This document shows positions 1 through 45,888 of a DNA stretch of 64,000 nt, one piece after another; positions within the stretch are counted from its first letter, which is position 1, and each line of letters opens with the position of its first letter. Source of the DNA: Yuukianura sp. NJ FZ-2021 (lineage: Eukaryota). A program made the translations under genes and the position numbers. The stretch covers positions 8,928,001-8,992,000 of the forward strand of contig CM102287.1 in NCBI GenBank assembly GCA_046563655.1. The letters run 5' to 3'. Under the pieces are notes generated by a model. That model made no database searches. It saw nothing but the letters and a program-made list of their open reading frames with translations, and was not told where the DNA came from.

Positions 1-184
1 AAATACTGGAACGAATGGCACTAACAACCAAACTGCGCAGGATCAAGGTCAGACGAACGGTTCTGTGCAAATCTCTGACACTTCAGTTCTATTCCTGGAA
101 GTCATTGTCATTTGTCTCATTTTCAAAAATTTTGGAGTCCAAGTTTTAACAAAACTGGCCAACTACCAAAAGAAATCAGCATGA
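1..184 (+). CDS. 3' end of a paralog of the Cys-rich secreted protein at 1239-3796 (gene begins left of window)
   Basis: Near-identical to 3613-3796 (NTGTNGTNNQTAQDQGQ...VLTKLANYQKKSA*); stop TGA at 182-184. Confidence 0.75.
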   Translation, partial: NTGTNGTNNQTAQDQGQTNGSVQISDTSVLFLEVIVICLIFKNFGVQVLTKLANYQKKSA

Positions 185-314
185 ATGGCAAAAATATGTT
201 TACTCTAATTATACTAAACTAAACTCCAAACTAATTCTAACCTAAAAAAATCTAAAAAAAAAACTAATGCAAAATGTTGGTTTTAATTAATTAATAAATA
301 ATGAATTAATTACT

Positions 315-850
315 TTAATTATGTTTTGGACGGTATGGTCACATGAGTCGTAGGTTTTGGAAGGAAACTCAAAAATGGAACGTCTTGGCCAATCATATTT
401 GCCTCTTCAATTCTTTCTGGCAAACTACGATGTAGAGTTTCCGGTAACAAAGCGGGTCAACCATGACACTAAAGGCTGGATGCATATCCCACATACCCTA
501 GTGTGAAAATTCAAAATTTCGAAATTTTGAAGGCAAATTTGCAGAAATTTTGGAAATGTTCACACAGTTTAGCCTTACCAACTAGACCACCGCAGACCAT
601 AACCCCAAGACCGGAGTTCTAAAAATTAAGTAACTCATCAACTATCGCTTTGTTTTTTGAACATTTTGAAAAAATTTTTGGAATTTTTTTTTTTAAATTT
701 ACCTTTGTCAATAGTTTCTACTGCAAATGAGTAAATGATGACGAAGATCATCGGGTATGCGGCAGTCAGAAACATTTCATAGACTAAATACAAAATGAAA
801 GTTCCGGGAACCCAGAGACTAATGTACCGAAGAACAGAGAGAACGAAAAA
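315..850 (-). pseudogene. Truncated, internally deleted copy of the SLC22 organic cation transporter gene
   Basis: 315-455 matches the last exon of the intact gene (3918-4057) with an extra T near the stop, then joins directly to sequence matching ~5117-5520; ~1.06 kb of coding region and the 5' exons are missing. Confidence 0.8.
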
Positions 851-1238
851 CTGATATTAGATTTGTAACTAGAAAGTAAGATTTGTGATCTCTAGTCATC
901 ATAATTTGTAGAATTTTTTAGTTTTTTACATTTTTAACTAAACCTGTGGAAGTTATTAGGTGATTGAATACGAGTTGACAAGTAAAGTTCTGAAATGTTT
1001 TTGAAAATTAAAAAAGTTATTTTCAGAATTTTGCCACGGCAACCGGAGTGACGTCAATAAGTTATTGATTATTTAACAAAATCGAAGAAACATCAGAATC
1101 GACACATTGCAATTCGAAATAAGTAAATCAAAAATATCGTTTGCTATGACTTGCTTTTTGAATTATTGTGTTCAAGAACTGCTTAAGTTCAGTACAAGTC
1201 AAACATTCCAAGTTTTCGAATTAAAAAAAAAATCAAAA

Positions 1239-3796
1239 ATGAAGTTTTTTACACAACTACGATTTCTCATCTTTTGTTTGTCCATTTGGAGTGGTACTGT
1301 CACCGCACAAGAGGAAGAAGTAAACTTCCCTCCTGGACCAGCTGAAAACGACACGAAAATATTCAATTTCCACATTTTCCTGGAATCAACTCTGGGCGGA
1401 TTGTTAATTGTAAGAAATCAATGTTACCTATATGGATTCAAGCATTCTATACGTTTCAAAATTTCGGAAACCTTTTATTAAAAACCATTTTTTAAAGATT
1501 TCATTCAATTATTGTTTTAGGGTGGATCAACACTTCCGAAAGAAAAGCTGTTGGAGATACAGGATTATCAATTAGCACAACGACAAGGGGATGCCTACAT
1601 GTTCAACCATTTCAAGTACTTTATCAATTTGTACGGATTTGACCTAGCTCTACGCGGGAATGCTAACAATATTCCATATCTTCCGCTTCATCCTCGTCCA
1701 TTGGACAATCTTCGGAAACATTGCACAGTCCAGGAACACGGAGGGGACATAATGGAGGATTTTCTGGCTGGAGGTCTCACTGAAGAGCACTTGGTGGAAT
1801 ACCCTCCAGACATCATTCCTTGTACTCCAGCCGGGTACATGCCAGTACTTCTGTGAGTCCGATCATAAACCATAATTAAATAGCGAGAGCTACTTAATGC
1901 ATCGAGCTTGTTGGTCGGGCCGACAACAGTGCAACATCTCCGGGATCTGTTTTTACCGGTGAACACCATGTGACCCGCGTGTGTTCACTGTTAAATGTCA
2001 TTCTGGTGGGTAAACTGCTGGGTCAACGGTCAAGGTCAACTTGTTTAATCCCGGGTAACACAAAAATGACCTCTGCAAAAGCTATTCATCTCTTCCAGGC
2101 AAACAACTTTCGTGTACATCACATTTCCACATTGCCCCAAATTACTTTCTACCGGGTCAAAGGACAACACTTTCATTTTACCATCTTTTGCATGCTACTT
2201 TCATGCACTCCGGGTTACAACTGGGTTTATTACCTAAACCCTAATGCTCCAGTCTTATACAAGCGCTAAAAAGTTACAAAATTAATTAAAGAACTTTGAA
2301 AGGTTAGATACTTTGTTGATATGTTTAGAATCGTATTTTCTAACGGTTTTTAGATGCCTTGCTGAACTTGAACCTGATCCAATTACTGGTAAACTTCAAC
2401 GGAATGGGACTTGCGTGTGTACACAGGAAAATATACGTTCAAAATGGACACCGTTTGTGTACCATGGAGTGACTGATACCGCAGCCAAAGGAACACCAAG
2501 GGAAAAGGAAGAGATTTCGTGTGTGGCCCAACTTGGGTCACTCTGCGATAACACAAGCCTCCCTTGCGAGGAAGGCGTAGAGTGCGTACAGGCTCACGAG
2601 AAGGGACCATCCTTCTGCGGAGGAACTATCGGGAAACTGGCGAGAGGATTCGGGTAATACGCTTTAGATCTAACTAAATTAAGTATTCCAAATCATTTGA
2701 ATTAACATTTAATTGTTGATTATTTAAGGGGTTCCATTCGGTTCACGGATAAACAGTTGGCAGATATCCTCAAGTCTCGTCAGTTTTCTACTCAGGAAGA
2801 AGTAGAAAACTATTTGATCCGAGTCACCAATTCCATCAATGTTCATAGCAGGGATTGTGATGTAAGAGCATAATAATCTACTAACACTATGTATTTACAA
2901 CTAAAATGGTCATCAGGATACTAACCTTATTTATATTTAGTTGTGTTTATTATTTTAATATTTTCTTTAAATTTGTAGCCTAATTACTGGGACTGGGTTG
3001 CCGGACAACTATTCAAAATCTTAAAATCAATCCAGAAAACTAACGCTACTGAACGAGATCTGGATGACAACATGGCGGAGGAAATGAGTGAATTTCTCGG
3101 TCCCTTTGACCAGCAACTCTTTGCCTACTATATGTCATCGGTGATTAAAGCCATGGGATACCTGAACGACGACGAGAGCCATCTGCAAACGGATCCAAAG
3201 TTTCGTGAACTTACTCGGTTGAGATCTGAGTATTATGACCTCAGTGACTACTGTCTCAACGAATTTCCACGCATGGCTTGTATTAAGAAAAAAACGGACC
3301 CACAGCGAGGTCTCTGTCTCTGCGCTTCGTCCAATGAAACTGGGTCAAGAGCATTCAATTACTTTCTAGAAGATGGACAATGTGTCGGTGGAGTTGGCGT
3401 AGTTTGTACCACAGTGCGGTAAATAGTTTTAAAAACATGTTTTACCGTACTTTTTTTCCTAACCGTGACCTTGAACTTGTCAGGGGGTCAGGAGACCATA
3501 TTTGTGCCAAAGGTCTCGTGTGTGAGCCCTACGCGCCTGACAAGTTCCGGGATATTCGAATCCCCGGACCCAGTTCTCACCTTGAATTTCACATTTGCAA
3601 ATACCCAAAAGGAAATACTGGAACGAATGGCACAAACAACCAAACTGCGCAGGATCAAGGTCAGAACGGCTCTACGCAGATCTTTGACACTTCAGTTCTA
3701 TTCCTTCTGCATGTCATTGCTATTTGTCTCATTTTCAAAAACTTTGGAATCCAAGTTTTAACAAAACTGGCCAACTACCAAAGCAAATCAGCATGA
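1239..3796 (+). CDS. Uncharacterised secreted or GPI-anchored cysteine-rich protein, 7 exons
   Basis: Signal peptide MKFFTQLRFLIFCLSIWSGTVTA; exons ~1239-1409, 1521-1853, 1884-1958, 2354-2653, 2729-2861, 2979-3418, 3484-3796 splice in frame with GT-AG; two similar Cys modules; hydrophobic C-terminal stretch. Confidence 0.7.
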
Positions 3797-3917
3797 ATGG
3801 CAAAAATATTTTTACTCTAATTAGACTATTCAAACTTTAAAAAAAAACTAAAAACTAAAAATTCAACTAATGAAAAATGTTGGTTTTAATTAATTAATAA
3901 ATAATGGATTAATTACT

Positions 3918-6300
3918 TTAATTATGTTTGGACGGTATGGTCACATGAGTCTTTGGTTTTGGAAGGAAACTCCAAAATGGAACGTCCTGCCCAATCGAAT
4001 TTGCCTCTTCAATTGTTTCTGGCAAACTGCGATGTAGAGTTTCCGGCAAAAAAGCGGAAGCTACCGTACCGATAACCGCTACTACCAGAAATGCTAAGTA
4101 TGTCAATGATGTTTCGGTCATAGCCTGCAAAAAATAAAATTTACAATATGAAATTTTTCAAAAACTTCTCTTCTTCAAAAAAAAATTAATTTATGAAAAA
4201 CTTACCATGAGTAGTATAGGTGGCGTTGCTAAATTTAGCGTTTCGGCAAAACCTATTGCAAACCCATAGCCCATGGCACGATGTTCTGTCGGAAAAATTT
4301 CAGCTGCTTGAAGTGGAAAAATCATTGATGTCGTTGATACAAAAAACCTACACATAAGAATTTTATCACAAAATTTTTTACACCAATTTTTTTTTCGTAA
4401 AGTGAAATTTTGAAAATTTTAACTACTTTACTTGCAAAACATTAAGGACGGAACGACCAAGTAGAAGTAATCTGGATACATTGTTCCGAATACCGCTAAG
4501 CCAAAACCGGCAGCACATGCAGCATGTGCAAATGTTTGTGACCAGCGTCTGCCAGCCTTTTCTGAAAATCAGACTTTTGGTCAGACATTTTCAGAAAATT
4601 TTCAGGTTTGAAATTTTTTTCGAGATGATTTTCAACTTTTCCAATTTTTTTTTACTGTTTTAGTGTAACTTACCGGCAAAATACCATCCGAACCACCCTG
4701 CCGGTAGTTCGACAATTGCTAGGAGGAAGAAATTTAGAAATTGATTTCCGGAGAGACTCGTCGTTCTAAAAGTGATTCCGTAGTAAACAATGACATTCGC
4801 TGCTGAAGAAAAACTTAGCAGAATAGTGTTTCTTGCTAATCGTTTTTTTGAAAACAGAGTCCAAATGCTACTTCGGTTTTTTCCTGAATTGATTTCATCT
4901 TGTTTATCTTTGACCCTGTGCAGAAGTCGTTCGAGTTGGCCTGGACCGAACTTGTGTCCTGTCCCATTGGTTGATGCAATTTGTTCCAAAATCTTCTTAG
5001 CTTCTTCTACTCTGTTTTGTGTTAAAAGCCATCGCGGTGACTCAGGAATGTACCCGTAAAAACAAAATGTTAGCAGTAGAGGTAGGGAGGTCAAGGTTCC
5101 AAACAGGTAATAGTCACGGGTCAACCATGACACTAACGGTAGGACGCATATCCCACATACCCTAGTGTGAAAATTCAAAATTTCGAAATTTTGAAGGCAA
5201 ATTTTCAGAAATTTTCGAAAATCTTGGCATATCAAGATAGTTCAGCCTTACCAACTAGACCACCGCAGACCGTAAACCCAAGATCGGAGTTCTAAAAATC
5301 AGGTATTCATCAACTGCAGCTTTGTTTTTAGAACATTTTGAAAATTGTTAGAAATTTTTTTAAAAATTTACCTTTGTTAAAAATTTCTACTGCAATTGAG
5401 TAAATAATGACGAAGACCATCGGGTATGCTGCAGACAGCAACATTTCAGCGACTAAATACAAACTGAAAGTCCCGGGAACCCAGAGACTGATGTACCGAA
5501 AAACTGAAAGGAGGAAACAGCATCCAAAGAAGCTCGGTTTTCTACCCCACCTTGATTTTCAAAACTAAAATTTTCAAAAATTCATTTTTTAAAAAACTTT
5601 TTTTAGTTTTACTTGTCCCCGGTCCAGCCGCAGATAAAAGTTCCCAGTAGACTTCCTACTATTCCAGCCATGAGTGCTACGGTTATGAGATCAGATCTGT
5701 CGCATACCCAGTCGTTGTGTGTCGCCATGGTACCGTCCAGTTGTGACTTGTCATAGTCCCACCCATGTTGACATGGAACTAGGCTGTGGTTATGCGGACT
5801 TACGTACATGTTGCATTGACTAAATCGTTCTAGTCCATCGGGACCAAATTCACTTAAACGTAGAAAAATATAAAGTTGAAGGGTACAGATTTCAAAAATT
5901 TTTTAATTTTGGTATTGTTTGAAATTTACCGCGGTATGGTTAAATTTTTCCATAAGCCCGGAGACGTTGTGTTGTGGTCTATGGGCAATGGGACATGACA
6001 CCAATGATCTGGAACTGTATACAGAAAAGTTGTGTTCATTACGAACAGTGGCAGGAGAAACGAGAATGGACAGAGCAGGCCGTAGAGCAAACATTTTTGG
6101 TATTTGCCATGCGATCCAACTAGTTCCAAAATATCTTCAAATTCTTCTATATTTTGGTAGCATTCATCCTATGATGTGCAAAAAAGTTAAAAAAAAAGTT
6201 CAAAATGTACCAAATTTTTGAAATTGAATGAAAAATTTCTTACTTCCTCTACATTTGTACTAGTATTTTCAAATGTTTTGTAGCCTCGATGTGGTTTCAT
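3918..6300 (-). CDS. SLC22 / organic cation transporter (MFS), multi-exon
   Basis: Typical SLC22 motifs: VPDHWC, PCQHGWDYD...DWVC, GWTGDK-GR, PESPRWLL, VELPA, GRR, AEIFPTEHRA, FLPET; the splice junctions checked are in frame. Confidence 0.9.
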
Positions 6301-7377: not shown

Positions 7378-9825
<2,448 letters not shown>

Positions 9826-10725
9826 AAAATTTCTATTTTTGAGTGAATTTTTATAAAAAAAAAAAAATCAAATACAAATCAATTTTAAAATTCAAACGAT
9901 TTCAGCACGATACTTCAGACGTTGATTGTAAATCAGCAAAAAAGATGCTGTAAATACTTTACAAAATCAAGGCTAAACATAATATCTATAAGAATAAGTG
10001 CTATATGAATTTTTTTTAACTTTGAGTTCCGAGTTTTGCATTTCTGAAAGTGTGAAAACATAGACATCACAAAAAGTTTGAGTCTGGAAAGGGCGTTTTC
10101 CTGCGAAAGGAAATTGCAGGTTAGAAACAGAAGCAAAAAATGGCACGAGCGATGGAATTACATGAGCGATGACCTCTTGATTCTTTCAAGGTCACCAATC
10201 ACAATCACTCTCACTTTGTGCTTAAAATTCTTCTGTCAAGTACTGACTAGAGTTACGTATTTTCGAATTCCACACAATATACACTTGTTAATTTTGAAAT
10301 TTTAGGTTTGAAAAGTTCTGTGTGAATTTAGCTGATCTCATTTTTATTTTGGAAGGTCAAAGGCTAAGGTTTTATCAAATCAGATTTTAATTGTTCATGT
10401 GTGTTTTTAATGTCAATGTCATGCTTTGTCTACAAACGAAACAGAAAGTGGTACACCATTTTCATTTTTGATGATCAATTATGGATTCACAGATCAAGTG
10501 CCTTTTTGATTTTCGTGATTCGGAGAATTTTGTGTTCAAGTGTAAATTTTTGTCAACACTTTTTAAATGTCAAGTTGAAATGATACTTCAGTTAGGATAC
10601 AATTTTGACATCTATGAAACTAAAAACTGCAAACATAACTTTTAATCTGGTGTTTATCAAAAAGTATAAAATTGTACAAAGTCGAGGCGCAGTGGCAGAT
10701 GAGACGCTTGGAAAATTTTGTCACG

Positions 10726-13193
<2,468 letters not shown>

Positions 13194-14081: not shown

Positions 14082-16209
14082 TCATCCGTATAAGCTAAGT
14101 TCCTGGTTTTGAATGATGGGCATAAGTTTTCGCAGAATTGGTTCGAGCGCAACGTCATTTTCAACAAACGGAATAATTTGTTCCAGTTTTTCTAAAAAGT
14201 GTTTTGCATCTTGCCCCAGGGGATACTCATGTACAAGGTACATTGGATCTGTCCTCCTGCGAATAGCAATTGCTTGTCTAACAGCAATCAGCAATGCAGC
14301 AGCCACTTGCTCAGAAAGTTCAAGAATGTTGAGACAGTCTCTAGCTGCAATTGTGCCCATGCTCACTTTGTCCTGGTTGTGACCTTCAGTTGACCTCGAA
14401 AAAATTGATGCTGCCACAGTATTCTTGAGGGCCTCGCCGGCCCATGCTGAACAACTGATCTGAAGTGCTTTCAAACCATGGTCAATACAAGCCTCTCTTC
14501 CAGTAGCACCAGACAAATTCGCAGGAAGGCCATGATTGTAATTTGTGTCCACGAGCAGAGCCATTTGTCGATCCAGAAGATCAGCCAAGTTGGCAACCAG
14601 GATTTTCATTCCGTCCATAGCAAAAGCAATATGGCCTCCTAATTATATGTCACGTGATCATAAAACTCAAGGTTCTTCAAGAAACAAAAGGTTTTTTTTC
14701 TACGCCAGGTTGTCCCCTAACTCAAAAACTCAATGTTTTGAGAATTATTGTTGAAAACTTCGTCAAACATTTTCTCCTGAAGCTATTATTAATGGTAATT
14801 GTTGTGTGATTGAGATTGGAAGAGAATTGAAGGAAAGAATTGTTTTTTTTTTTGAGATTTTCGAAAATTCCGGGTTATTGGACAACCTGTTGTAGGAATA
14901 CAATTTGGTTGTCAATGAACCTTGATAAAACGTAATAATTCATAAATTCGCATTCATTTTTTTATAACAATAATAACTTTATATCATTTGGATCATCTTT
15001 ACCATAAAAATGTCCTCCGTGCAGAACGCGTTGACTGTCGACATCAATGATTGGATTGTCATTGGAGCTGTTTAGTTCTGATTCGATCAAAGTCCGAAAA
15101 AATGGAAGCGAATCTTCCAGCACTCCGATGACATGCGGCGAACAGCGAATGGAGTAACGATCTTGGATTCTCGGAATTTTGTTGTAGTCGGCCGGAGCGT
15201 CAGAAATCAGCAAGTCACTTCTGATTCTAGCAGCGACGAGTTGCTGTCCAGGGTGAGGCTTGACTGAAAACAAAGTTTCGTCATAGTGAAACAAGTTCCC
15301 ACGCAGAGACACAATGGCCAGAGATGCAATTCTGGAACAGAGTTTGGACAAGTACTGCGCACGACAGAAAGCCAAAGAAGCCAATCCAGTCATCACTGAC
15401 GTTCCGTTCATAATCGCCAGACCTTCTTTCGGTGCTAGCCGAAGCGGAGAAATTCCAAGCTGCCAAAAATTTAACCCCTTCCGTTCAAAATGTTGATCGC
15501 ACAATTTGGTCTTAAGATTGCTTAAGTTCAAACTAACTACTGAGAATTTCGTTTTTATAAAATATTTCGAACCTACCTGTTTCAGAACCGTGTCGGCTGG
15601 AACGATACTTCCGTTGTACCGAACATTTCGATCTCCGCAGAGTGTTGCTGCAACGTAGGACAGTGGAGTGAGGTCTCCAGAAGCTCCGACTGATCCAGTC
15701 GAAGGAATGCAAGGCAAAATGTCCAACTGTAGAAAAGTGACCAGTTTCTGAAGCAGTTCGAGCCGTACGCCTGAGAATCCTCTGGCCAGAGATGCTAATC
15801 GAGCGACCAAAATGCTGCGTGTTTCAGCTTCATTGAAATGCACTCCCATTCCGCAGGCGTGGTAGAGACATAGGTGATTCGGAAGGTCAGCGACAAGGTC
15901 TTTGCCGATCATCACAGTACAATTGTTGCCATAACCAGTGTTTACGCCATAAATGATCAAATTTTCTTCTAAAAGCTTTTGAACAGTTTTGTGTCCCGCT
16001 TCAATCTGATTGCAGTAGGATTCGTTTGGAGACAGAATGACATCTACAGTTCGTCTAGAAATGTTCCAAACATCTTCAATTGTCAGTTGATGTTCTCCGA
16101 TTACAATTGGATTCCTGGTTAGTTGACCTTTAACCTGCATCTTCATTCCGTTTTGCTTACAAATGCCGTTAGTGTGACTATGGTAATGTCCGTTGGTTGC
16201 AAGATCCAT
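14082..16209 (-). CDS. MIO-dependent aromatic amino acid ammonia-lyase (HAL/PAL/TAL family), bacterial-type sequence, 3 exons
   Basis: IYGVNTGYG, GSVGASGDL (ASG MIO triad), KEGLAIMNGT, QDRYSIRC, NDNP, HGGHFYGGH, STEGHNQDKVSMG; exons 16209-15577, 15459-15003, 14638-14082 with GT-AG introns. Confidence 0.93.
14664..14925. mobile_element. MITE-like inverted-repeat element in intron 2 of the ammonia-lyase
   Basis: Left ctacgccaggttgtcc (~14700) is the inverted complement of right ggacaacctgttgtag (~14881); a related copy lies at ~45238-45470. Confidence 0.65.
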
Positions 16210-17093: not shown

Positions 17094-18625
17094 TCAACCA
17101 AAAGTGAGCATGAGTCGCACAATAGATCGCAGAACAAAGTTTTTGAGAATAATGAGGTACGTATTTCTGCGTATTGAGTAGAATGAGCCAAGTTTGAATT
17201 TTAGTTCTGGACATGACTTTCTAAATTGTTTTGTAAGGATGTAGGTGTGGGCTCTTGGAAATTGACCTGATACGACTCTAGCCTGTGCCAGAATGCGCAT
17301 GAACAGAAAGAAGAGGCCAAAGGTCGTGACTCCAATGAGTAGAAATAGGATAGTTGTGTAGTGATTAACTGAACTGTGCAAAATGATTAGCCAAAATGAA
17401 ACTGTGATTTGGATTAAAGATGCGACGATTTGAGTTGATGCAATGACGATGTTGCAAAGTGCGTCTACTTCAGCAAGTAACAATGCAGTTGTGCGGTAAA
17501 AGAGTTCCACGTTCTTCCGAGCACGAGTTGTCGTTTGACCAATCACAGCCCTAGAGAAAGTATTGCGGTAAACACAAATGTTTAGGGAAAGTAAAAAAAA
17601 AAATTGGAGAAAAATGTATTAGTTTCAGAAAGCGAGTTTTTGTTTGAAAAGGACAAAATTTTGGGGAAATTGAGTAAAATACCTGAGATTTCTGTCCTGG
17701 ATCCACTTGATGGTACAACTGTCCACGACTAGGATGCCAATGACACAGTACATGAGACAATGTGTCCACAGTACACTTGACAATGCAGTGATGTATAGTG
17801 ACAGTACAAGTATTTTGTGAGGAATTGGTGACATGACCCAAAGTATGAACCGCATAAATACCAAATCCGAGGAGAAAAATAAGTAAAAGCCCGGGATTTC
17901 CACCATAGGTGAACAGATTACCAAAATTGTCGAAAATGTTATCATTTCGTCCAGTCGGCTTTTGTCGGGCGGAGTAACAGAGAAAATAGTTTCTAAAAAA
18001 GGAAACTTAGAATGAAAACATAGAATTTTAAGTTTAGAAATTTGAAATTTTGTGTTTAGAAACTTAAAATTTTGAGGTCAAAGTTCCTTTTTTGCGTTAT
18101 ATGATACAATTCCAACTTATGCTACGTTTTCTATGCCGTTTCTCTAGGAGAGTCTGAAATATGCCAATATGCATGCTTAGCGTGGACCTCACTATTCTAA
18201 TCAATAGATACATCTATGTGTGTGTGTTTCGTAAATTCTTTTGGAAACTTACGGTACTTTTGATTGTAAGCCAAGTAGTTGTTGAGTAAATGCATGCATC
18301 TGTCTAGTCTTGTGAGATAGAAAAATTCGAGTAGAAGAGCCATAGCAAAAATGCAGGCAATGCAGATGAGCATAAATGTTTCTTCGGTTGGTAGTTTTAC
18401 AAATACGGAAACTAATGCAAATTGAGCAAGTGCTATCAACTGCGTAGTAATGCTAAACCAAGTAACAAATTTCCACAAAGGTATTTTAATCTTCTTAAAA
18501 CACCCGTAATTTGTAGCTGGTTCAAATTTTAAATTTTTAGAATCAAATGACAACGGTAACAAATAGAAAATATTTCCAATCCAACAACAAAACTGAATAA
18601 GTTTAAACGTTTTTTTGGAAATCAT
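17094..18625 (-). CDS. Gustatory-receptor-like multi-pass membrane chemoreceptor, 3 exons
   Basis: Exons 18625-18253, 17992-17683, 17550-17094 splice in frame; many hydrophobic helices; C-terminus LKFKLGSFYSIRRNTYL...LMLTFG resembles the three genes at 42.7-47.6 kb. Confidence 0.65.
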
Positions 18626-19459
18626 TTTCGTCTTCAAAAAAGAAAGGAATCAAATTTTTTTTTCGAATTTGTTTGTGTCCAAATGCAATAACAGGAATGG
18701 TGGCGACACAAATTCAGTTCAGTGCTCTTCCTTTTGTTTACGAAGCTTCGATACTTTTTGATTTTGGTTTTGAAAGGTTATTTTTGGGACACTTTAGTAA
18801 GTTGTTTTTGTGTAAACTTCTGAAAAGAGGTTTTAAATTGAAGTTTTTACTATTATGCTCAAAGCTTTCAAAAACGTTTTAAAAATGACATTTTTTTTAG
18901 AAACAAACAACATAAAAAATTTAAAGAAACTCTTACTTATGGTCTTTTCAAAAAAAGAATTAATGTTGCGATTGCTGAAAATCTTATGTGAAAATTTAGA
19001 ACATACATCAACCTTGGAGTTAATTAAGACAATTTTAATTGGGTTTTCCCATAACGTCATCCAGGATGGATAGTGTAGTGAACAATTCCAAATTACATTA
19101 CAAAAAAATCTCAAATGTACGAATATGAAAACAAGTTTCTAAGCTAAAGCAAAAACACATGAAAAGGAACACAAAAACTACTAACTTTGCTATAATAGAA
19201 TTCATGGACACTCGATTTGAGCAATTTCCCTGATTTCATTTATGAATTTAGTTAATATTTTACCTTCCACTATGTTGTAATCTATGTAAAGTTACAATTT
19301 ATAAACTAAACTAAACATAAAAACTCCGGTCACACGTTTTTAGACTTGCAAGAAAACTTATATATTGACAATTCCCAAAATCTACGAACGAAGTATTTCT
19401 AAAATTTTACATTTTTGCACTACTTTTTTTTTGTTACAACGAATTTGTACAACTGTACA

Positions 19460-21068
19460 ATGCCCGCCAAACTAAAGTTTTTGTTCATGCCGGCTGATGG
19501 ACTGGGTCACTACAACGCCTGTTTTGGACTCGCTGGTGTACTGCGTGACAGGGGTCACAGCGTGACCTTTGTGGGGTCACTTAAATGGAAAGGCAAGTTG
19601 GCTGCTCAAGGATTTGTAGAAGAATTGTACAGTGTTCCAGGAGAAGAAAACGAAAGTGAGGAGCAATGTGGGGAAAGATGGGGCAAAATGATAGCAGCAG
19701 CCGCTCCAGTCTTTTCTCTTCCACCAATAGAAATGCACGAACACGTCTACTTACCCCTGGGGCTAACCGGAATCAGGTTGATTCAAGCTATCAACGATCA
19801 GCTGGCGGAAATTGTGCAGCGTGTTCAACCGGACATGATCGTTGCGGACTTGTTTCATCACATTCCTGGACTTATGGATCAAGGTATGTATTTTGAAGCG
19901 GTATCTACGGTATTTGAAACGGTACCGGTACAATTTTATTTAAAACGGGTACCCTTCATAAACTAAAAGGTACCAGAGTCGTCATTTCGACGGTATTTCA
20001 TATTAGTATTTCATATTTTTTTTTTAGGGTGATTGTATATGAAATGGTATTGATAAGTTAACGGTATTTTGTTGCGGTATTTGTAGGGTACCCCTGGATC
20101 TTAGCATTTTCATCTCAACCGTTACCGTTTTCCCGCCAAAACGTGCCGCCACCATTTGCTGGACTACCGACTACTGATCCTGACAACCACAAGCAAACTT
20201 GGGCACAATGGGACGAAAAACATGCCCAGATTTACAAAAATTATGAAAATGAGTACAACGAATTTCTAAAAAGCAAAGGAAGCAAGGAAATTAAATTTTC
20301 ATTTCCATATTGTTTGCAACACTTCTCCCCTCATGCAAATCTGTACATGTACCCAAAGGAATTGGACTACACAAGTATTCGGCCTAATCCGCCAAACTTT
20401 TTTCAATTCGACACATTCATGCGACCGGGAACTGGAAATTTTGAAATTCCTGAACAACTTAAATCGGGCCCTGGGAAAATAGTGTATTTTTCAATGGGGA
20501 CAATGGGCGCAGTTGAATTGAATTTGATGCGGAAACTGATTTCAATTTTATCAAAGTCTCCAAACAGATTCATTGTTTCTAAAGGTATGTGCGAATTTCA
20601 AAAAAATCCAAAATTTTGAAAATTTCTAAAAAAAATTTGGAACTTTTAGGCCCGAAAGGTGAAGAACTCGAGCTTCCTGAAAACATGTGGGGAGAAAACT
20701 ATGTTCCACAAATAGACGTGCTCCCATTGGTGGATCTCGTGATCACGCATGGCGGGAACAACACGATTACGGAATCGTTTTACTTTGGGAAACGTGTTCT
20801 CGTTCTGCCTTTACTTTTTGACCAACCAGATAATGCTCAGCGTCTGATCGAAACTGGACTAGGACTTGGCTTCAATCCATTCACTGTCACTGAAGATCAG
20901 TTGCTCGTTGCCATAGAAACGCTCCTTGGCGACAACGTCTTAGAACAGAAAATGGCCGCTATAGGACGCAGAATCCAAGCATCGAATAGCCAATCAAGAG
21001 CGGCCGATTTAATTGACCAAATGACAAGAAAAGTAATCCGTGACACTAGGGGCTGCCGACAGCAGTAA
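19460..21068 (+). CDS. UDP-glycosyltransferase (GT1, soluble bacterial/mite-like type), copy 1
   Basis: N-terminal DGLGHYN (catalytic His), RGHSVTF, VYFSMGT, signature VPQIDVL...ITHGGNNTITESFYFG...PLLFDQPDNA; exons 19460-19883, 20087-20584, 20651-21068; no signal peptide or TM anchor. Confidence 0.93.
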
Positions 21069-21594
21069 ATCAAGAGCAGAAGAGAAATTCTTAAAATTTC
21101 AAAATTCTCAAAAATTTTAATTTTTAGTTTCCAAATATCTAACTTTTAATTTCCAAATTTTTCTCGCCAATCACTAAATTGAGTATTCTGTTGTGTCTAA
21201 ATTTTCTTTTTGCACTATTTTTTTTTTGCTGAGCATAATTCGTGATGTTTTTATGAATAAAATGACCTCGTGATGTTTTGCAAAAACATCACGAGTTTTT
21301 AGCAATTCGTGTCACATGGTCATTTTAACCTTGTTTGTCCTCCACGCGCATCTACGTGACCTTTTCATTTATCACTGACTATCAATTGAGAATCTCAATT
21401 AATACAACCTTCAACTTAGCCAATAAAGCCTTTAATTCACACTCTAACTTGATATCTCATATTTTTAGTGAAAAAAAAACCGCTTCAGTGTTTAAAATTT
21501 TCACTTTCTAAACAAGCAGCTAAACAGTTGTGGAATTTGGAAATTAAAAGACAAATCGCATCCCTTGTGCCGATTTGAATTTTGGCGGTACAAA

Positions 21595-23906
21595 ATGTCG
21601 TCAGAGAAGTTGAAAATACTGTTTGTACCGGAAGACAACATGATGGGACCATTCAATGCCTGTATAGGCATAGCTTCTGTGTTGAGAGACAGAGGTCACG
21701 TGGTGACCTTTGCAGCATCGACAAAATGGGCAGGAAAATTGAAAATTCAAGGCTTCCAGGAAGAACTGTTCACTGGGCCAGACGAGGAACTTAATGCTAA
21801 AGGTGAAGCTGGAGATACTTTTGGTGACTGGATTACCGCAATTGCTCCAGTTTTGGCTCAACCGACTATAAAATTCCATGAAGCCATCTACAGCAAAATG
21901 TTGGAAGAAACAACCAAAATGATTATTCATACGAATGAACAATTCAAGGCAATTGTAGCACGAGTACAACCGGATGTGCTTGTGCTTGATCTGTGCCAGC
22001 ATGTTCCAGCACTCATGGATGCAGGTAATGTACATGCACGTATCAGGTGAAATGGCCAAAACAATTTGGCCAAAAGTGAAATGGTCAGAGGTGAAAAGGC
22101 CAGAAGTGAAATGGCCAACATAGGCACAACATAGGCAAAACATAGGCACTACATAGGCAAAACATAGGCAAAACATTGGCAAAACATAGGCACTACATAG
22201 GCAAAACATTGGCAAAACATTGGCAAAACATAGGCACTACATAGGCAAAACATTGGCAAAACATTGGCACTACATAGGCAAAACATTGGCAAAACATAGG
22301 CACTACATAGGCAAAACATAGGCACTACATAGGCAAAACATTGGCAAAACATTGGCACTACATAGGCAAAACATTGGCAAAACATTGGCACTACATAGGC
22401 AAAACATTGGCAAAATATAGACACTACATAGGCATTTTTTCCTAATTCTGATCTTTTCACTTTCTGGTCTTTTCTTATTTTGGCCATTTCACTTTTTGGT
22501 CTTTTCACTTTTTGGCCTTTTTAATTTTTGGTCATTTCCTTTCTGGCTTTTTCGCATTTTGGCCTTTTCACTTTTTGGCCATTTTAATTCTGATCTGTTC
22601 ACTTTTTGGCCATTTCACTTCTGGCCTTTTCACCTCTGACCATTTCATTTTTGGCCAAATTGTTTTGCCCAAATTACAAGGAATCGTACATGCGCGATTT
22701 CAAATGAAAAGATTCAAGAATACGCGCCACATGAGGTACATAAGTGCAATTACGGTACTTTGATTTCGTTTTCCAATAACATTCCGGAAAATTCAGAATT
22801 CACGAAATCTTAATTTTCGAAAAATTTCTCCTCCTAATAATAATTCTGGAATTTCTTCGCTCCATTTTGCATCCAATTTTTTTCTATTTTTTTTTTTCAA
22901 ATGAAGCTATATCTTTTTCATTTTTTTTTTTTTGAAGTTTCAGGAATACCGTGGATCCTCTCCGTATCATTGACTCCGCTAGGAATCTCGGGTGAAAACG
23001 CTCCTCCAGCTTGTTCCGGTTATCCCACAGAGGGTGACAAAAATGCCTGGAAATTGTACGATGAAGAAGTTGCCCGAGTTTACAAAAATTCGGACGCCGA
23101 ATTCAATGATTGGCTGGTTTCTCAGGGCAGTCGACCAATGAAAAGACAGTTTCCATTCATGATGGACTTTTCACCCTACGCCAATATCTACATGTACCCT
23201 GACGAATTGGACTACACTCCATTCCGCCCAAATCCACCAAATTTCTATCAATTTTCGTCTTTTGTCAGAAAATGTACCGAAACTTTTGAAATTCCGGAAA
23301 AACTGAAAAACGGTCCAGGAAAATTAATTTACTTCTCAATGGGAACTATTGGCTGCTGCGAAATTGGATTGATGAAGAAACTTATTTCATTTTTGGCCAA
23401 ATCACCAAATCGGTTCATTGTTGCCAAAGGTAAAAATGTGATTTACATTGTTGCAACATTTCAATATGTTTGAAATTTTGAACTTTGAAACTTTTTTTGA
23501 AACAGGGTGGAAAGGTGATGAGCTTGAGTTAAGCGACAACATGTGGGGAGACAAGTATTTACCGCAGTTAGCGATCCTGCCTAAGGTTGACCTTGTGATT
23601 ACCCACGGTGGGAACAACTCTGTGACGGAGTGCTTTTATTTTGGACGTCGCGTATTGGTTCTGCCGATTTTGTTTGATCAACCGGACAATGCACAGCGTA
23701 TTGTTGAAACTGGACTTGGGCTGGCATTCCATCCTTACAAAGTATCTGAAGAAGAGCTGCTGAAAGGAATTGAAACACTGCTGGCAGATGACCTATTGCA
23801 ACGCAGAATGACCGCGATTTCACGCAGAATGCAGTCGTCTAACAGCCAATCAAAAGCTGCCGATTTAGTAGAACAAGTTGCAAGGAAACAAAAAATTCAG
23901 CTTTAA
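21595..23906 (+). CDS. UDP-glycosyltransferase copy 2 (His replaced by Pro at the catalytic position)
   Basis: Exons 21595-22024, ~22944-23429, 23506-23906; signature LPQLAIL...THGGNNSVTE...FDQPDNA; N-terminal NMMGPFN. Confidence 0.9.
22038..22686. mobile_element. Foldback/MITE-like element with an internal 11-bp tandem array in intron 1 of UGT copy 2
   Basis: ~64-bp inverted repeats (22054-22118 vs 22606-22669) flank roughly 29 copies of cat(a/t)ggca(aa/ct)a at ~22119-22434; absent from the equivalent introns of the other three UGTs. Confidence 0.8.
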
Positions 23907-24162
23907 CTGTAACTCCTGCAAAACGAATCTAAACATTTGAAGACAAACAAATTTTAACAACGTAGCACAAAAGTAGTTCTTCCTCCACTAGATAAATGAG
24001 TCAAAAAATTTCTCTTCGCTTTACTAACTTCAGATTCGAATAAGTTTTTTATAGTCTTCAATAGTCAGCTGATTTTACACAGAAGTTTCATACTGTATAA
24101 GTTTCGGTTTGATTTTGTTTTTTTAGAAGTTTTAGAATTTCGTTGATTTTGTGTAAAAAAAA

Positions 24163-25682
24163 ATGTGTGAAAAGTTGAAAATTTTGTTTATGCCGGAAAC
24201 CGGTATGGTGGGATCCCTCAACGCTTGTATTGGCATTGCTTCTGTTTTAAGAGACAGAGGTCATCATGTGACCTTTGTAGTGGCAAGTACATGGGAAGGA
24301 ATACTAGAAAATCTAGGATTTTTGGAAGAGTTGTATTCGATTCCACCAAGAAAAAGTGATTCTGAAGAATCCGAAAATTCTGTTGATCCGATTTCACTGT
24401 CTCCTCTGGAACTACATGAAGCCTTATACGCAAAGTGTTTAAAAAAGGTCAACAGGACAATCCGTTATACACATGATCAGCTCAAAACAATTGTATCAAA
24501 AGTAGAACCGGACGTCATCGTACTTGATGTCTGTCAACATATTCCAGCACTCATGGACTCTGGTAATCCGCATGTGCAGATTTTTTTTCACTTTTCTACC
24601 AATTTGTGGTTGTAACGCCCTAATGCTTCTAAACGGTATTTTACGGTACTTGCAAAACTAAAATTCACAAAAAATTTTGGCGCACTTTACAAAAACGTTT
24701 TTTAGGAATTCCTTGGATACTTTCTATATCAATTATGCCGCTAAGCATTTCGAGAGTGAATGTCCCTCCTCCTTATGCTGGATTTCCTACGGAAGGAGAT
24801 CGAAGTGAATGGAAATCTTACGAAGACACAATTTCAAAAACTTATAAAATTTTGGATGAAAAATTCAAGGAGTGGCTGGTTAGCGTAGGAAGTGAGCCAG
24901 TAGAACGACACTTTCCATTTCACCTTAAATTTTCACCTTACGCCAACATGTACATGTATCCACTTGAGTTGGACTACACCGCCTACCGTCCAAATCCGCC
25001 AAATTTCTTTCAATTTGATGGTTACGTGACAAAATCAACCGAAGTTTTTGAAATTCCTGAAAAACTTGAAAATTGTCCAGGAAAACTGATTTACTTTTCA
25101 ATGGGAACTACTGGATTCTGTGAAGGACTGCTACTGCATAAACTGATTTCAATTTTATCAAAATCTCCAAACAGATTTATCATCTCCAAAGGTATTTTTG
25201 GAAAAAAGTGATTTCAAAAATCAAAATTCAAAAACTTAAAAATGCTTGTTTTGAAAATGTTTCAAGGTTGGAAATGCGACGAGGTTGAGCTGGGTGAAAA
25301 CATGTGGGGTGAAAACAACATTCCGCAGCTAGCTGTCATCCCATTGGTCGACCTTGTGATTACCCACGGCGGGAACAACACAATTACGGAATGCTTTTAC
25401 TTTGGAAAGCCTGTTCTGGTTCTTCCGATGCTGTTTGACCAACTTGACAATGCGCAGCGCATCCAAGAAACGGGACATGGACTGGCGTTACATCCCCATA
25501 GACTGTCTGAATCCGAGTTGCTGGTTGCCATAGAAACGCTATTGGCAGATGACCTCCTCCAACGCAGAATGAAATCCATATCGCGCAGAATCCAAGCATC
25601 AAATAGCCAATCAAAAGCAGCAGATTTAGTGGAAGAAGTAGCCAACAAGCATAGCAAACGAAAGCAAACTTTGAGTTTATGA
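24163..25682 (+). CDS. UDP-glycosyltransferase copy 3 (His replaced by Ser at the catalytic position)
   Basis: Exons 24163-24562, 24706-25191, 25267-25682; THGGNNTITE...FDQLDNA; N-terminal GMVGSLN; shorter first exon. Confidence 0.9.
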
Positions 25683-26067
25683 AAATTTGAAAACTAAAGT
25701 CTTGACGTTGCGATTTTAAAGAAGTTTGACAAAAATGTCAAAGTTAGGATGAAATTGTTATGAATTAAAAAATAAATGGGCACGTTGACACAGGAGTCAA
25801 TGCCATTTGTGAAATTTGTGAATGTCAGATTGACCTCTGCCAGTGTGAAGGTCATGATAAAGTAGTTCTGAAGTAGCCATAATCGTTGATAAGTTACTCA
25901 AGTGTTAGCATTGAAGATGAAATAGAAAGCATCAATCACTTTGACTTTAGTACTTGAATCTAGAGGTGAAATTTCATTTCAAAAACTTGTTTTAGAGATT
26001 TCTAAAAAAAATACAGTTTTTTTGTTGTGAACCGGCGGATTTCCAAGAAAATATTTCGGGCAGCAAC

Positions 26068-27537
26068 ATGGCTGAAGAAAAGTTGAAGTTTTTGTTTGTC
26101 CCCGTAGATGGGATTGGGCACTTCAACGCTAGTTTTGGCATAGCTTCAGTGTTGGTCGACCGAGGTCACTCGGTGACCTTTGCTGCCCCACCACAATGGA
26201 TGGGAAAACTGAAACCAATGGGATTCGAGGAAGAGATGTATACTGTATCAGACGAACCGGTACAAAGTACTGACGACAGTACAACAAAATGGATTCAAAT
26301 GATATCCGACACGGCTCAATCTTTTAGTCATCTTGTTGAAGTCCATAAACACTTCTACATCCAATTGTACATCCGAATTTGGAATTTCTACAGATATGCG
26401 CATGAGCAATTCAAACAAATCGTGGAACGGGTTAAACCAAACGCCATAATTTTGGATATCTTCTACCACGTTCCGGCGTTGATGGAAACCGGTAATTCGT
26501 TAAATATTTTGAATTTTTGAAACTCCCGCGTTTTATACAAATCGTGCGTCTTATACAAAAACATTTTTTTTTAGGAATTCCTTGGATTAACTTGATATCG
26601 ATTGCTCCACTAGCGATTTCCAGAGACAATGTGCCACCACCCTACGCAGGAATTCCGACAGAAGGCGATCCTACAGAATGGCAAAATTTTGAAACCGAAG
26701 TTTCAAAACTTTACAAAAATTTGGAAATTGAAAACAACCAATGGCTTAAAGATGTAGGAAGCAAAGAAGTCATACAATTCAAAATGCCGTACTTTATGAA
26801 ATATTCTCCTCACGCTAACATCTACATGTACCCAGAAGAATTGGACTACACAGCTTACCGCCAAAATCCACCTAATTTTTACCGGTTTGATGCCTTAGTA
26901 CGCAAGTCAAGCGACACTTTTGAAATTCCCGCAAAACTTGAAACCGGCCGTGGAAAACTGATTTACTTTTCAATGGGCACCGTTGGAAGCGTTGAGATCG
27001 GCGTAATGAAGAAACTGCTTTCAATTCTATCAAAATCTCCAAACAGATTTATCATTTGTAAAGGTACAATTTTCGAAAATTTTCACTTCGAAATTCCATA
27101 TTTCAAAATTTCGAAACTTAGGAGCCCGTGGAGATGAACTTGAGCTTGGAGACAACATGTGGGGTGCAAATCGCCTTCCGCAGCTAGCTGTCATCCCATT
27201 GGTTGACCTTGTGATTACCCACGGGGGGAACAACACAATTACGGAATGTTTCTACTTTGGAAAACGCGTTCTCGTCCTGCCTATGCTGTTTGACCAACTG
27301 GACAATGCGCAACGCATACAAGAAACTGGACATGGACTGGGATACAATCCGTACAAGGTGACCGAAGACGAGTTGCTTGTTGCCATAGAAACGCTACTTG
27401 GAAACGACTTACTGGAAAGAAGAATGACCTCCATTTCGCGCAGAATCCAAGCGTCCAATAGCCAATCAAAAGCGGCGGATCTGGTAGAGGAAATCGCCCG
27501 GAAACATTACGAATCTACAAAATTCCACCAATACTGA
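26068..27537 (+). CDS. UDP-glycosyltransferase copy 4
   Basis: Exons 26068-26491, 26575-27063, 27122-27537; DGIGHFN with catalytic His; THGGNNTITE...FDQLDNA. Confidence 0.93.
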
Positions 27538-44369: not shown

Positions 44370-45888
44370 TTATTTCGTGCTCAACAGAAGGTTAATTGTG
44401 GTATCAAAAATGAATCGAATAAAATGTAAATTAGTTTGTCTTTTGAAAACAAAAAAAATTCCAAGTTGGACTTCCAATTGACGCAAGGTTTTGAGGGTAC
44501 GGCGGAACGAATAAGCCGACATGCGTAAAGTCGCAACGGACGCTGCCCACTGATCAAGTACTTGTGAACTGCGCATGTGTATTAAACAGCATACTCCATT
44601 GAATCCAAATAGAGCCACGCAATGACCAATCGCAACCAATAGAGACACTGTGTACACGGAAGTACCGGCTGTTTCATAAGTTCGGATTACAACGTAGATT
44701 GAATTTATAGTCATCGCGCTTCCAATTAACATCGACACCAAAATAAAACCGCCGAAATTATTCTTAAAATGAATACTAAATAGTTGACGCAACCTGTAGA
44801 TTTTCCATTGCTCCAATAAATAAGCTTCCGTTTTTCTACGAATTTGACAAAACTTTAAATTACGAGCTTTTGTTCATGAATTTTGTGTTACGTAGCATTC
44901 ACGTTACTTACATGCATTCACGAAGTATTATCTTGAGGTTGTACAGTGTAGTGGCTAGATGCATGTAAACCATAAAGGAAAGGATCAAAGCAGAAGAAAA
45001 AATTGTAAGGGACACGTAGATATCCAACAAGGCTTCAGCTATTCTGAAACCTCGAAATGAAGAGACTTGCAATTTTGAAATTCCGTTTTCGGATATTAAA
45101 ACTGAACAAACTATGATTGGTCCAAAAATATGAGTTATCGAGACGAAGAATAGGAAAACTGTGTTGATATTTTTCCAAACCGGATTATAAACCTCTGCTC
45201 CATACTTTTCTAGAACGAAATTCCATAGAAATCAGGGTTAAGGTTACTTGACAACCGAAATACAACAAATTGTATTTCCTACAACAGGTTGTTCAATGCC
45301 TCAGCCTCAGGGTTTCCAAAAATCTTACTTCAGACAAAATTCTGCACAAATCCCACTTACATTACATACAAAAAATTTCCATAGAAAGGCAGATTTTTTT
45401 GTCAAATAAATTTTAAAACATCCAGTTATTGGACAACCTGGTGTAGAAAACGTTTTCTTTTTGTTTACGAACATTGCAAACAAAATTAAATGCTTGCAGT
45501 TTTTTTAAATTGTACCTTCCAGTGAAGATTGTAGAAGTATGAATTGGTTGAACATGTAAATTATTTCGTCTCTTTTGGAGTACCAAATCCAACGATGTTG
45601 CAAATGAAGAAACCAATTTTGGACGAACGGAGTATAAAAATTTGATATTGCATCTGGTAGCTGTATATGATTGGTAAGGTACTGCACAAATCTGATGGCT
45701 ATGAATATTGTACGAGCTGCAACTGTTACTAAAAATACATTTTCTAAAACCTTCTTGAATTTAGAAAATGTCGTGACTGACGCAACCTTGGCAGGATTTG
45801 GTTGCAGAAAAGTTCTATTCATTTGAAAAGGAATATAAAAAAACTTTGTAGAAAAGTTCACAAAATGGCGGCACCAACTTAACTTCAT
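44370..45888 (-). CDS. Gustatory-receptor-like chemoreceptor, tandem copy B, 3 exons
   Basis: MKLSWCRHFVNFS...YMFNQF; C-terminus FVFKRQTNLHFIRFIFDTTINLLL. Confidence 0.7.
45238..45470. mobile_element. MITE-like element, same family as the one in the ammonia-lyase intron, opposite orientation
   Basis: ctacaacaggttgttcaat (~45279) inverted to attggacaacctggtgtag (~45428); left arm aaggttacttgacaacc...aaattgtatttcctacaacaggttg matches the reverse complement of ~14878-14922. Confidence 0.7.

Follow-up and report, generated by a model that had tools for sequence, protein, structure and literature searches.

The family of enzymes built around the methylidene-imidazolone (MIO) electrophile is well known, and horizontal acquisitions of genes are well documented in springtails. 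To our knowledge, animals are generally held to be without phenylalanine or tyrosine ammonia-lyase (PAL, TAL), the entry step of phenylpropanoid chemistry. We describe here a gene of this family in the genome of Yuukianura sp. NJ FZ-2021 (GenBank assembly GCA_046563655.1, contig CM102287.1, positions 8,928,001 to 8,992,000 of the forward strand). This whole stretch of 64,000 nucleotides is named the window below, and all coordinates refer to it. A sequence-only reading had proposed that positions 14082 to 16209 carry a bacterial ammonia-lyase gene domesticated in an animal. Our verdict is that there was one old transfer from a bacterium to the springtail lineage. The gene is not unique to the Yuukianura genome, Folsomia candida having it as well. 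Its product probably acts as a TAL.

Several described systems can be set beside this gene. In the accessible part of Weise et al. (2017; PMC5651878), the residue pair Tyr-His (YH) at the selectivity position figures among the known TAL motifs, the strict TAL BagA being the example, while Phe-His (FH) is possibly intermediate and Phe-Leu (FL) indicates PAL. The accessible part of a review (PMC9002059) states that arthropods lack the histidine-utilisation pathway. Histidine ammonia-lyase (HAL) of metazoa and its bacterial counterpart HutH (TIGR01225) have in common with the window protein the superfamily PF00221, the MIO triad and the catalytic Tyr, and they differ from it in their selectivity and substrate-pocket motifs and in the side of the tree where they stand. 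The metazoan HAL sequences P0245 and P0259 also have an N-terminal extension of about 113 residues ahead of the domain. The PAL of the cyanobacterium Anabaena variabilis (2NYN, 5LTM) is the best sequence match in PDB (186.7 bits, E 5.6e-54) and a distant one; its selectivity pair is Phe-Leu (PMC5651878, same part), against Tyr-His in the window protein. With cyanobacterial PALs as the nearest solved structures, at about 187 bits, the PDB matches hold no close structural template for the clade.

The BagA/FevW TAL of Streptomyces (NF041222; BagA-like rows P0172 and P0173 of our alignment) has the same Tyr-His, FYGGH and HNQDKVSM, but its place in the tree is apart from the group of 41 rows to which the window protein belongs. 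The lyases of bacterial clusters of the aryl-polyene or xanthomonadin type (Jeongeupia L001, Stenotrophomonas maltophilia L046, Corallococcus L025) share YH, HGGHFYGGH and HNQDKVSMG with it. Unlike these, the animal gene stands alone, without cluster partners; it has two introns and host codon usage, and its product begins with about 34 additional residues that make a short His/Asn-rich extension. Finally, the F. candida protein XP_021959042 (OXA48659) belongs to the same clade, with 52% identity over the first two exons, and differs at several motifs, where it has Phe-His, GAMFYGG and TTGLG for the Tyr-His, GGHFYGG and NTGYG of the window protein.

Structure and conservation of the gene

The gene lies on the minus strand, at 16209-14082, and is complete: three exons join to 1647 nt, encoding an MIO-type ammonia-lyase of 548 amino acids with one terminal stop. 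Exon 1 (15577..16209, minus strand, 211 codons) opens at the first ATG of its frame, at 16209, and holds the catalytic lid-loop Tyr87, the selectivity pair Tyr116-His117 and the MIO precursor Ala176-Ser177-Gly178. The codons of the pair (15859..15864, minus strand) translate as YH, in columns where HutH and vertebrate HAL have SH and where the aryl-polyene-type and BagA-like enzymes have YH or FH; those of the precursor (15676..15684, minus strand) translate as ASG. Exon 2 (15003..15459, minus strand, 457 nt) carries Asn229 in its NGT motif, QDRYSIR at residues 310-316 and the start of HGGHFYGGH, a motif that straddles intron 2 (15021-14631). Exon 3 (14082..14638, minus strand, 557 nt including the TGA at 14084-14082) contains HNQDKVSMG, residues 450-458, at 14381-14355.

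Both introns, on the same strand, run from GT to AG. Intron 1 (15460..15576, 117 nt) is of phase 0, in frame and free of stops, while intron 2 (14639..15002, 364 nt) is of phase 1. GC content is 45-47% in the exons versus 32% in intron 1 and 30% in intron 2. Translated one by one, the exons match PF00221 at 184, 166.9 and 112.8 bits (E 5.8e-54, 8.6e-49 and 2.2e-32; gathering cut-off 27.3 bits), over profile positions 1-168, 170-323 and 326-452 of 466. Because the profile continues from exon to exon, passing from 168 to 170 over intron 1 and from 323 to 326 over intron 2, it confirms both splice junctions independently. The place of the gene and the exact limits of its introns, as given in the sequence-only reading, are confirmed by the splice model, the GC contrast and this continuity, and every motif quoted there was found. 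As an aside, a transcript retaining intron 1 would carry an in-frame insert of 39 residues, not code for a truncated protein; the PF00221 profile has no room for these residues.

The complete MIO set is found in the alignment: Ala176-Ser177-Gly178, the lid-loop Tyr87, Asn229, Gln310, Arg312, Tyr313 and Arg316, together with the NDNP and NQD motifs. The MIO columns read ASG in 28 of the 29 printed alignment rows, as counted in the analysis; P0201 reads SSG, and L090 shows a gap there, the region not being covered. Among the columns that are invariant in 18 bacterial members of the clade, the window protein keeps 170 of 188 (90%), to be compared with 59% overall identity to one such enzyme, and the 18 changes are mostly conservative. 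The other sequences of the animal clade keep 90-93% of these columns. Because the invariant columns are kept, long purifying selection after transfer is indicated, not decay, and we consider it very probable, from this conservation, that the gene is still functional.

Relatives and phylogeny

A word-indexed protein search scored 8000 candidates, 7970 of them at E ≤ 0.001, and its best 120, at 45-54% identity, were listed. The sole animal name in these best 120 of 8000 is F. candida XP_021959042 (P0003), annotated 'histidine ammonia-lyase', with 52% identity. The other names are those of bacterial proteins of the 'HAL/PAL/TAL family' or of 'aromatic amino acid ammonia-lyase' (Massilia, Stenotrophomonas, Andreprevotia, Methylococcales and others). 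The top match, P0001, with its full-length cluster mate P0121, is a metagenome protein with an Asn/His-rich N-terminus resembling that of the window protein. When 1.84 billion representatives were searched exhaustively with HMMER, 7767 proteins came out at E ≤ 0.001; they added distant members, among them three vertebrate histidases, identified by name. A scan of contigs with the window protein alone matched 163 stretches with no relative among them; it was repeated with an alignment of the hits. Six high-identity fragments (P0235, P0179, P0213, P0247, P0158 and P0225) were considered as extra animal copies and discarded: most look like frameshifted genes of high-GC bacteria.

The maximum likelihood tree (69 rows by 526 columns, LG+C20+F+G4 by PMSF) was computed on a set from which these fragmentary hits, representatives outside the range of 440 to 700 residues, L082 and, for run time, most of the 150 representatives were kept out. 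The window protein, P0150, P0121, L090 and the Folsomia protein make one clade in this tree (100/99), recovered in 100% of 200 bootstrap trees, within which the window protein pairs with P0150 (100/97) and P0121 with L090 (100/99). This animal clade is itself nested in a clade of 27 rows (96/93) made of enzymes from Chitinibacteraceae, Oxalobacteraceae, Lysobacteraceae, Cellvibrionaceae, Shewanella and Myxococcota. Across the tree from it, bacterial HutH encloses the vertebrate HAL of Rhinatrema, Microcaecilia and Salvelinus (100/98). The bacterial origin that had been proposed is thus borne out, the protein falling among bacterial HAL/PAL/TAL-family enzymes and apart from metazoan HAL, as sampled by vertebrates. 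Grouping with metazoan histidases, the outcome named earlier as refuting, did not occur. Forcing the five animal-clade sequences together with vertebrate HAL costs 258.6 units of log-likelihood and is rejected by the approximately unbiased (AU) test (p-AU 1.3e-64).

Identities range from 52 to 66% among the animal copies, with 66% (protein) between window and L090; the window protein has 59% identity to the Jeongeupia enzyme, and P0121 has 80% to L090. L090 is a metagenome contig of 4.5 kb, noted here for its stretch 1-3882, with an orthologue of GC3 – the GC content at third codon positions – 0.72. Because GC drops from 56-59% to 37% right past the stop, and because an alpha/beta-hydrolase gene downstream is split between two frames, as by an intron, this contig is taken as eukaryotic. 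The orthologue has no intron at the site of intron 2 of the window gene. The hydrolase differs from the downstream neighbour in the window, which weighs against conserved linkage on that side. P0150 is a gene call of 229 residues on a metagenome contig of 3.7 kb; its family match stops at the residue which ends exon 1 in the window, followed by a Val codon and unrelated residues. This suggests that the position of intron 1 is common to P0150 and the window gene, the call being that of a prokaryotic gene caller reading into a phase-0 intron. A single origin, then gain of introns and divergence, is the simplest reading.

Two side observations were made in the same set of relatives. The sequence L033 10001-11509, from an assembly titled Nocardiopsis yanglingensis, has a position in the tree almost identical to that of Stenotrophomonas maltophilia (branches 0.11 and 0.15), which suggests contamination or a very recent transfer. 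P0002, a protein of 671 amino acids at NCBI that looks like the product of a high-GC gene, has the middle and C-terminal part of its lyase domain apparently doubled, and NCBIfam gives two to three matched stretches for it.

Integration in the host genome

Across the window, 79 long reading frames were scanned for families, and those with matches are arthropod-type genes split into exons. Such genes flank the lyase on both sides, as had been claimed. GC3 is 0.39-0.47 in the lyase exons and 0.36-0.48 in nine neighbouring host frames, versus 0.70-0.97 in four bacterial homologues: the base composition of the gene is fully ameliorated to that of the host. With two introns, host-like GC3 and host genes on both flanks, domestication in an animal genome stands, and we regard bacterial origin together with true integration as almost certain.

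Intron 2 holds an inverted-repeat element of about 260 nt (14667..14925), resembling a miniature inverted-repeat transposable element (MITE), with imperfect inverted ends of 55 nt (arms at 14667-14721 and 14874-14925). The alignment of these ends scores 35, against a mean of 16.7 and a maximum of 25 after shuffling. The end motif recurs in both orientations some 30 kb away in the window, at 45262-45297 and 45424-45450. The insert fits, by its sequence, a MITE-like host repeat. The earlier mention of a host MITE in the intron is thus confirmed in part, for an inverted-repeat element whose end motif is found elsewhere in the window and which is a candidate MITE. The second site, 45262-45450, with two opposed end motifs about 130 nt apart, is probably another small MITE-like element.

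Comparison with histidases

All NCBIfam scores given for the window protein come from three separate exon pieces, not from one spliced query. Summed, the pieces reach about 339 bits on the hutH model TIGR01225 (cut-off 539.15) and about 357 on PRK09367/NF006871 (cut-off 524), below both. They reach no other NCBIfam equivalog cut-off. The PAL model TIGR01226 gives about 259 bits (cut-off 519.15), and the selectivity pair is YH, not Phe-Leu. Controls on the HutH models behave in the same way for relatives of the window protein: aryl-polyene-type paralogues, the Folsomia protein and P0121 score 381-403 bits, with 381-400 for the two clade mates, P0003 (Folsomia) and P0121, and with 380.9 and 391.5 for Folsomia itself, which is thus also under the cut-offs. 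Vertebrate HAL P0245, by contrast, reaches 761.5 bits. A second PF00221 gene is present in four of the five bacterial genomes that carry an aryl-polyene-type gene, and the three that were scored are true HutH (625-659 and 682-706 bits on the two models).

Motifs tell the same story. HutH and vertebrate HAL have Ser-His, NGTQ, GGNFHG(Q/E) and (Q/T)EDHVSM in all printed rows but the C-terminally aberrant isoform P0259. The window protein and the bacterial clade have Tyr-His, NGT(S/A) – NGTS in the window protein itself –, QDRYS, HGGHFYGGH and HNQDKVSMG, with Phe-His in Folsomia, Shewanella and two further rows. The contrast between Ser-His with GGNFHG and Tyr-His with GGHFYGG, which the sequence-only reading had put forward, is exactly that of the alignment. 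Its statement that this is not an ordinary animal histidase was upheld by the tree, the AU test, the HutH scores and the motifs. The public name 'histidine ammonia-lyase' of the Folsomia orthologue would be misleading, as model scores, motifs and tree give it no support.

Bacterial context and proposed history

The gene is found within an aryl-polyene-type cluster in four of the five bacterial loci (Stenotrophomonas maltophilia, Jeongeupia, Corallococcus and a Cellvibrionaceae bacterium, not Massilia aurea). There it is accompanied by Ketoacyl-synt_2, an acyltransferase, an AMP-ligase fused to an ApeI-like dehydratase, a GT2 glycosyltransferase, and LolA-like and MMPL-like export proteins, with a halogenase-like flavoprotein, DUF3261, ketosynthases, an ApeP-like dehydratase and a ketoreductase. 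This is a pigment cluster of the aryl-polyene/xanthomonadin type, in which the lyase would be expected to supply an aryl-acrylate starter. No member of the ApeI/ApeP dehydratase, ketosynthase, AMP-ligase or LolA/MMPL families was found among the 79 frames scanned in the window.

The history that we propose is the following. An ancestor of Yuukianura sp. and F. candida would have taken up the lyase gene of a bacterial aryl-polyene cluster. The gene would then have gained spliceosomal introns, its His/Asn-rich N-terminal extension and host codon usage, while being kept by purifying selection. In the protein, Ala176-Ser177-Gly178 would self-cyclise to make the MIO electrophile. The enzyme may be a cytosolic homotetrameric lyase. 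Given its Tyr-His pair, it is predicted to deaminate L-tyrosine to p-coumaric acid, possibly with some activity on phenylalanine, and would make no urocanate from histidine.

Beside the Tyr-His pair, exon 3 finds its best NCBIfam match in the BagA/FevW TAL model NF041222 (140.1 bits, versus 73.5 for HAL). The three pieces together give about 343 bits on this model, below its cut-off of 1000, and the BagA-like rows make a separate clade (95/95). Because of the pair and of this match, TAL is the favoured activity, and we hold it probable, without going further, that tyrosine is the main substrate and p-coumarate the main product. The sequence-only reading had considered that Tyr-His leaves the substrate open. 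This is no longer fully so, YH being a TAL motif in the part of PMC5651878 at hand; the activity nevertheless stays a prediction, to be graded against its rivals.

Weighing the alternatives

That the gene might be a bacterial contaminant, the product of a chimeric assembly or an ancient gene inherited vertically by animals comes to mind when the nearest named relatives besides Folsomia are all bacterial (in the best 120 of the 8000 scored candidates). This is extremely improbable: contamination does not go with two spliceosomal introns of host-like low GC, with host-like GC3, with an intronic repeat present elsewhere in the window and with host genes on both sides in one contig, nor does vertical descent go with a clade nested within a bacterial one and with a single springtail behind the only animal names among the matches listed. 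Nor is a decaying or silent relic of the transfer likely. The mobile-element-like insert of intron 2 might evoke one, yet the frame of 548 amino acids is intact, 170 of the 188 bacterial-invariant columns and all catalytic motifs survive despite full compositional amelioration, and the five animal-clade sequences are all open over their known extent. We hold a relic to be very unlikely. It is even less likely that the enzyme is the histidase of the animal, making urocanate in place of a canonical HAL. The name given by NCBI to the Folsomia orthologue, the His at the second selectivity position, as in HAL, and the absence of canonical HAL that is said of arthropods would be in keeping with this view, against which stand HutH scores far under the cut-offs, the substitution of SH, NGTQ, GGNFHG and QEDHVSM altogether, and a place in the tree far from both HutH and HAL.

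The same transferred gene might code for another activity: a PAL, a bifunctional Phe/Tyr lyase, or a tyrosine or phenylalanine 2,3-aminomutase giving a beta-amino acid. This, while unlikely, is the most serious of the rivals. Members of the clade of the Folsomia and Shewanella types have Phe-His, called possibly intermediary (accessible part of PMC5651878); the exon pieces score nearly alike on aminomutase and lyase models (120.3, 119.5 and 63.7 bits on Phe_D_beta_mut); and we met with no assay of any member of the clade in the literature searched. On the other side, the window protein itself has the Tyr-His pair cited for strict TAL (same source, same part), its scores stay below every aminomutase and PAL equivalog cut-off, and the bacterial gene sits where an aryl-acrylate starter, the product of a lyase, is needed. 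Returning to a TAL of bacterial origin, resident in springtails for long, several points weigh against it. In the maximum likelihood tree the bacterial sister of the animal clade is a polytomy, and the AU test, while its group came from a refutation criterion set beforehand, was run after the tree had been seen. The TAL call depends on one two-residue motif and one paper, accessible in part (PMC5651878). We found no biochemical study of members of the aryl-polyene-type clade, bacterial or animal, in the literature searched. Phe-His occurs in Folsomia and in some bacterial members, and His361 is replaced by Met in three animal sequences, which means that specificity may differ from one member of the clade to another. 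Lyase and aminomutase, finally, cannot be told apart from sequence. All this considered, the explanation as a whole, an old resident gene of bacterial origin which acts as a TAL, retains our preference as a probable one.

Neighbouring genes and a possible pathway

Family matches place a sugar-type MFS transporter at 4663-5241 (minus strand) and two tandem GH1 glycosidases at 8238-9488 and 10639-12863 (plus strand), convergent with the lyase gene. On the other side come cereblon, at 29.2-30.4 kb, and an ecdysteroid-kinase-like (EcKL) gene, at 37.0-38.4 kb. The cereblon piece has F. candida as its first match (55% identity), the next named one being a stick insect (41%). Judged by this one gene and by the family content of the window, the host would most likely be a springtail, and one at some distance from Folsomia. 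CUB/LDLa, SUEL lectin, P450 and rhodopsin-type receptors (G protein-coupled receptors, GPCR) are further family matches in the window. Hydrophobic frames at 17094-18649 (minus strand), between the lyase and the glycosyltransferases described next, have no Pfam match and resemble, by their look, a multi-pass membrane chemoreceptor of the seven-transmembrane (7TM) type.

About 3 kb upstream of the lyase, past this 7TM-like gene, stand four tandem glycosyltransferase genes (19469-27501, plus strand). Each aligns end to end with MGT/YjiC/YojK-type glycosyltransferases of about 430-450 residues, and all are interrupted at two shared positions. The Atlas clusters closest to them are bacterial, and the best relatives with a name come from oribatid mites (Oppia nitens, 54%), from spider mites and bdelloid rotifers, and from bacteria; the best 120 relatives comprise no Folsomia protein. 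The sequences suggest that these four genes are a second family of bacterial derivation beside the lyase. In the third gene, an in-frame stop at 25209-25211 lies inside a possible short intron.

It is tempting to put these genes together. Within 25 kb, the putative TAL, the four MGT/YjiC glycosyltransferases, of a family labelled UDP:flavonoid glycosyltransferase by the sources, the two GH1 enzymes as beta-glucosidases and the MFS transporter could make a clustered phenylpropanoid pathway in an animal. We consider this as very doubtful. If it were true, phenolic glucosides derived from p-coumarate would be made and stored, and their aglycone freed on demand. This would amount to a plant-like two-component defence, or to a chemistry of the cuticle or of protection against ultraviolet light, drawn from at least two separate bacterial acquisitions.

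Significance

In the literature searched, which had subscription journals outside its coverage, we came upon no TAL/PAL-like gene of bacterial type described from springtails or from any other arthropods, and the term 'ammonia-lyase' is absent from two supplementary files of the Folsomia genome paper. A rotifer gene termed 'histidine ammonia-lyase-like' (PMC12220480) was considered as a comparable transfer and set aside: its best hit is animal, and the source does not flag it as transferred. RmXAL, considered as a proteobacterial counterpart, is in the literature found the name of an enzyme that makes cinnamate. Public databases already contain the orthologue of F. candida, a laboratory model, under a name which our comparisons do not bear out.

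The phylogenetic and structural case is strong, while the biochemical claim, the part which would give it weight, is one that we infer. The gene adds to the acquisitions of springtails a clean case, with a single origin, introns that came later and full compositional amelioration, next to a second family of bacterial type. Should the enzyme be a TAL indeed, the springtail lineage would possess a route of its own from tyrosine to p-coumaric acid.

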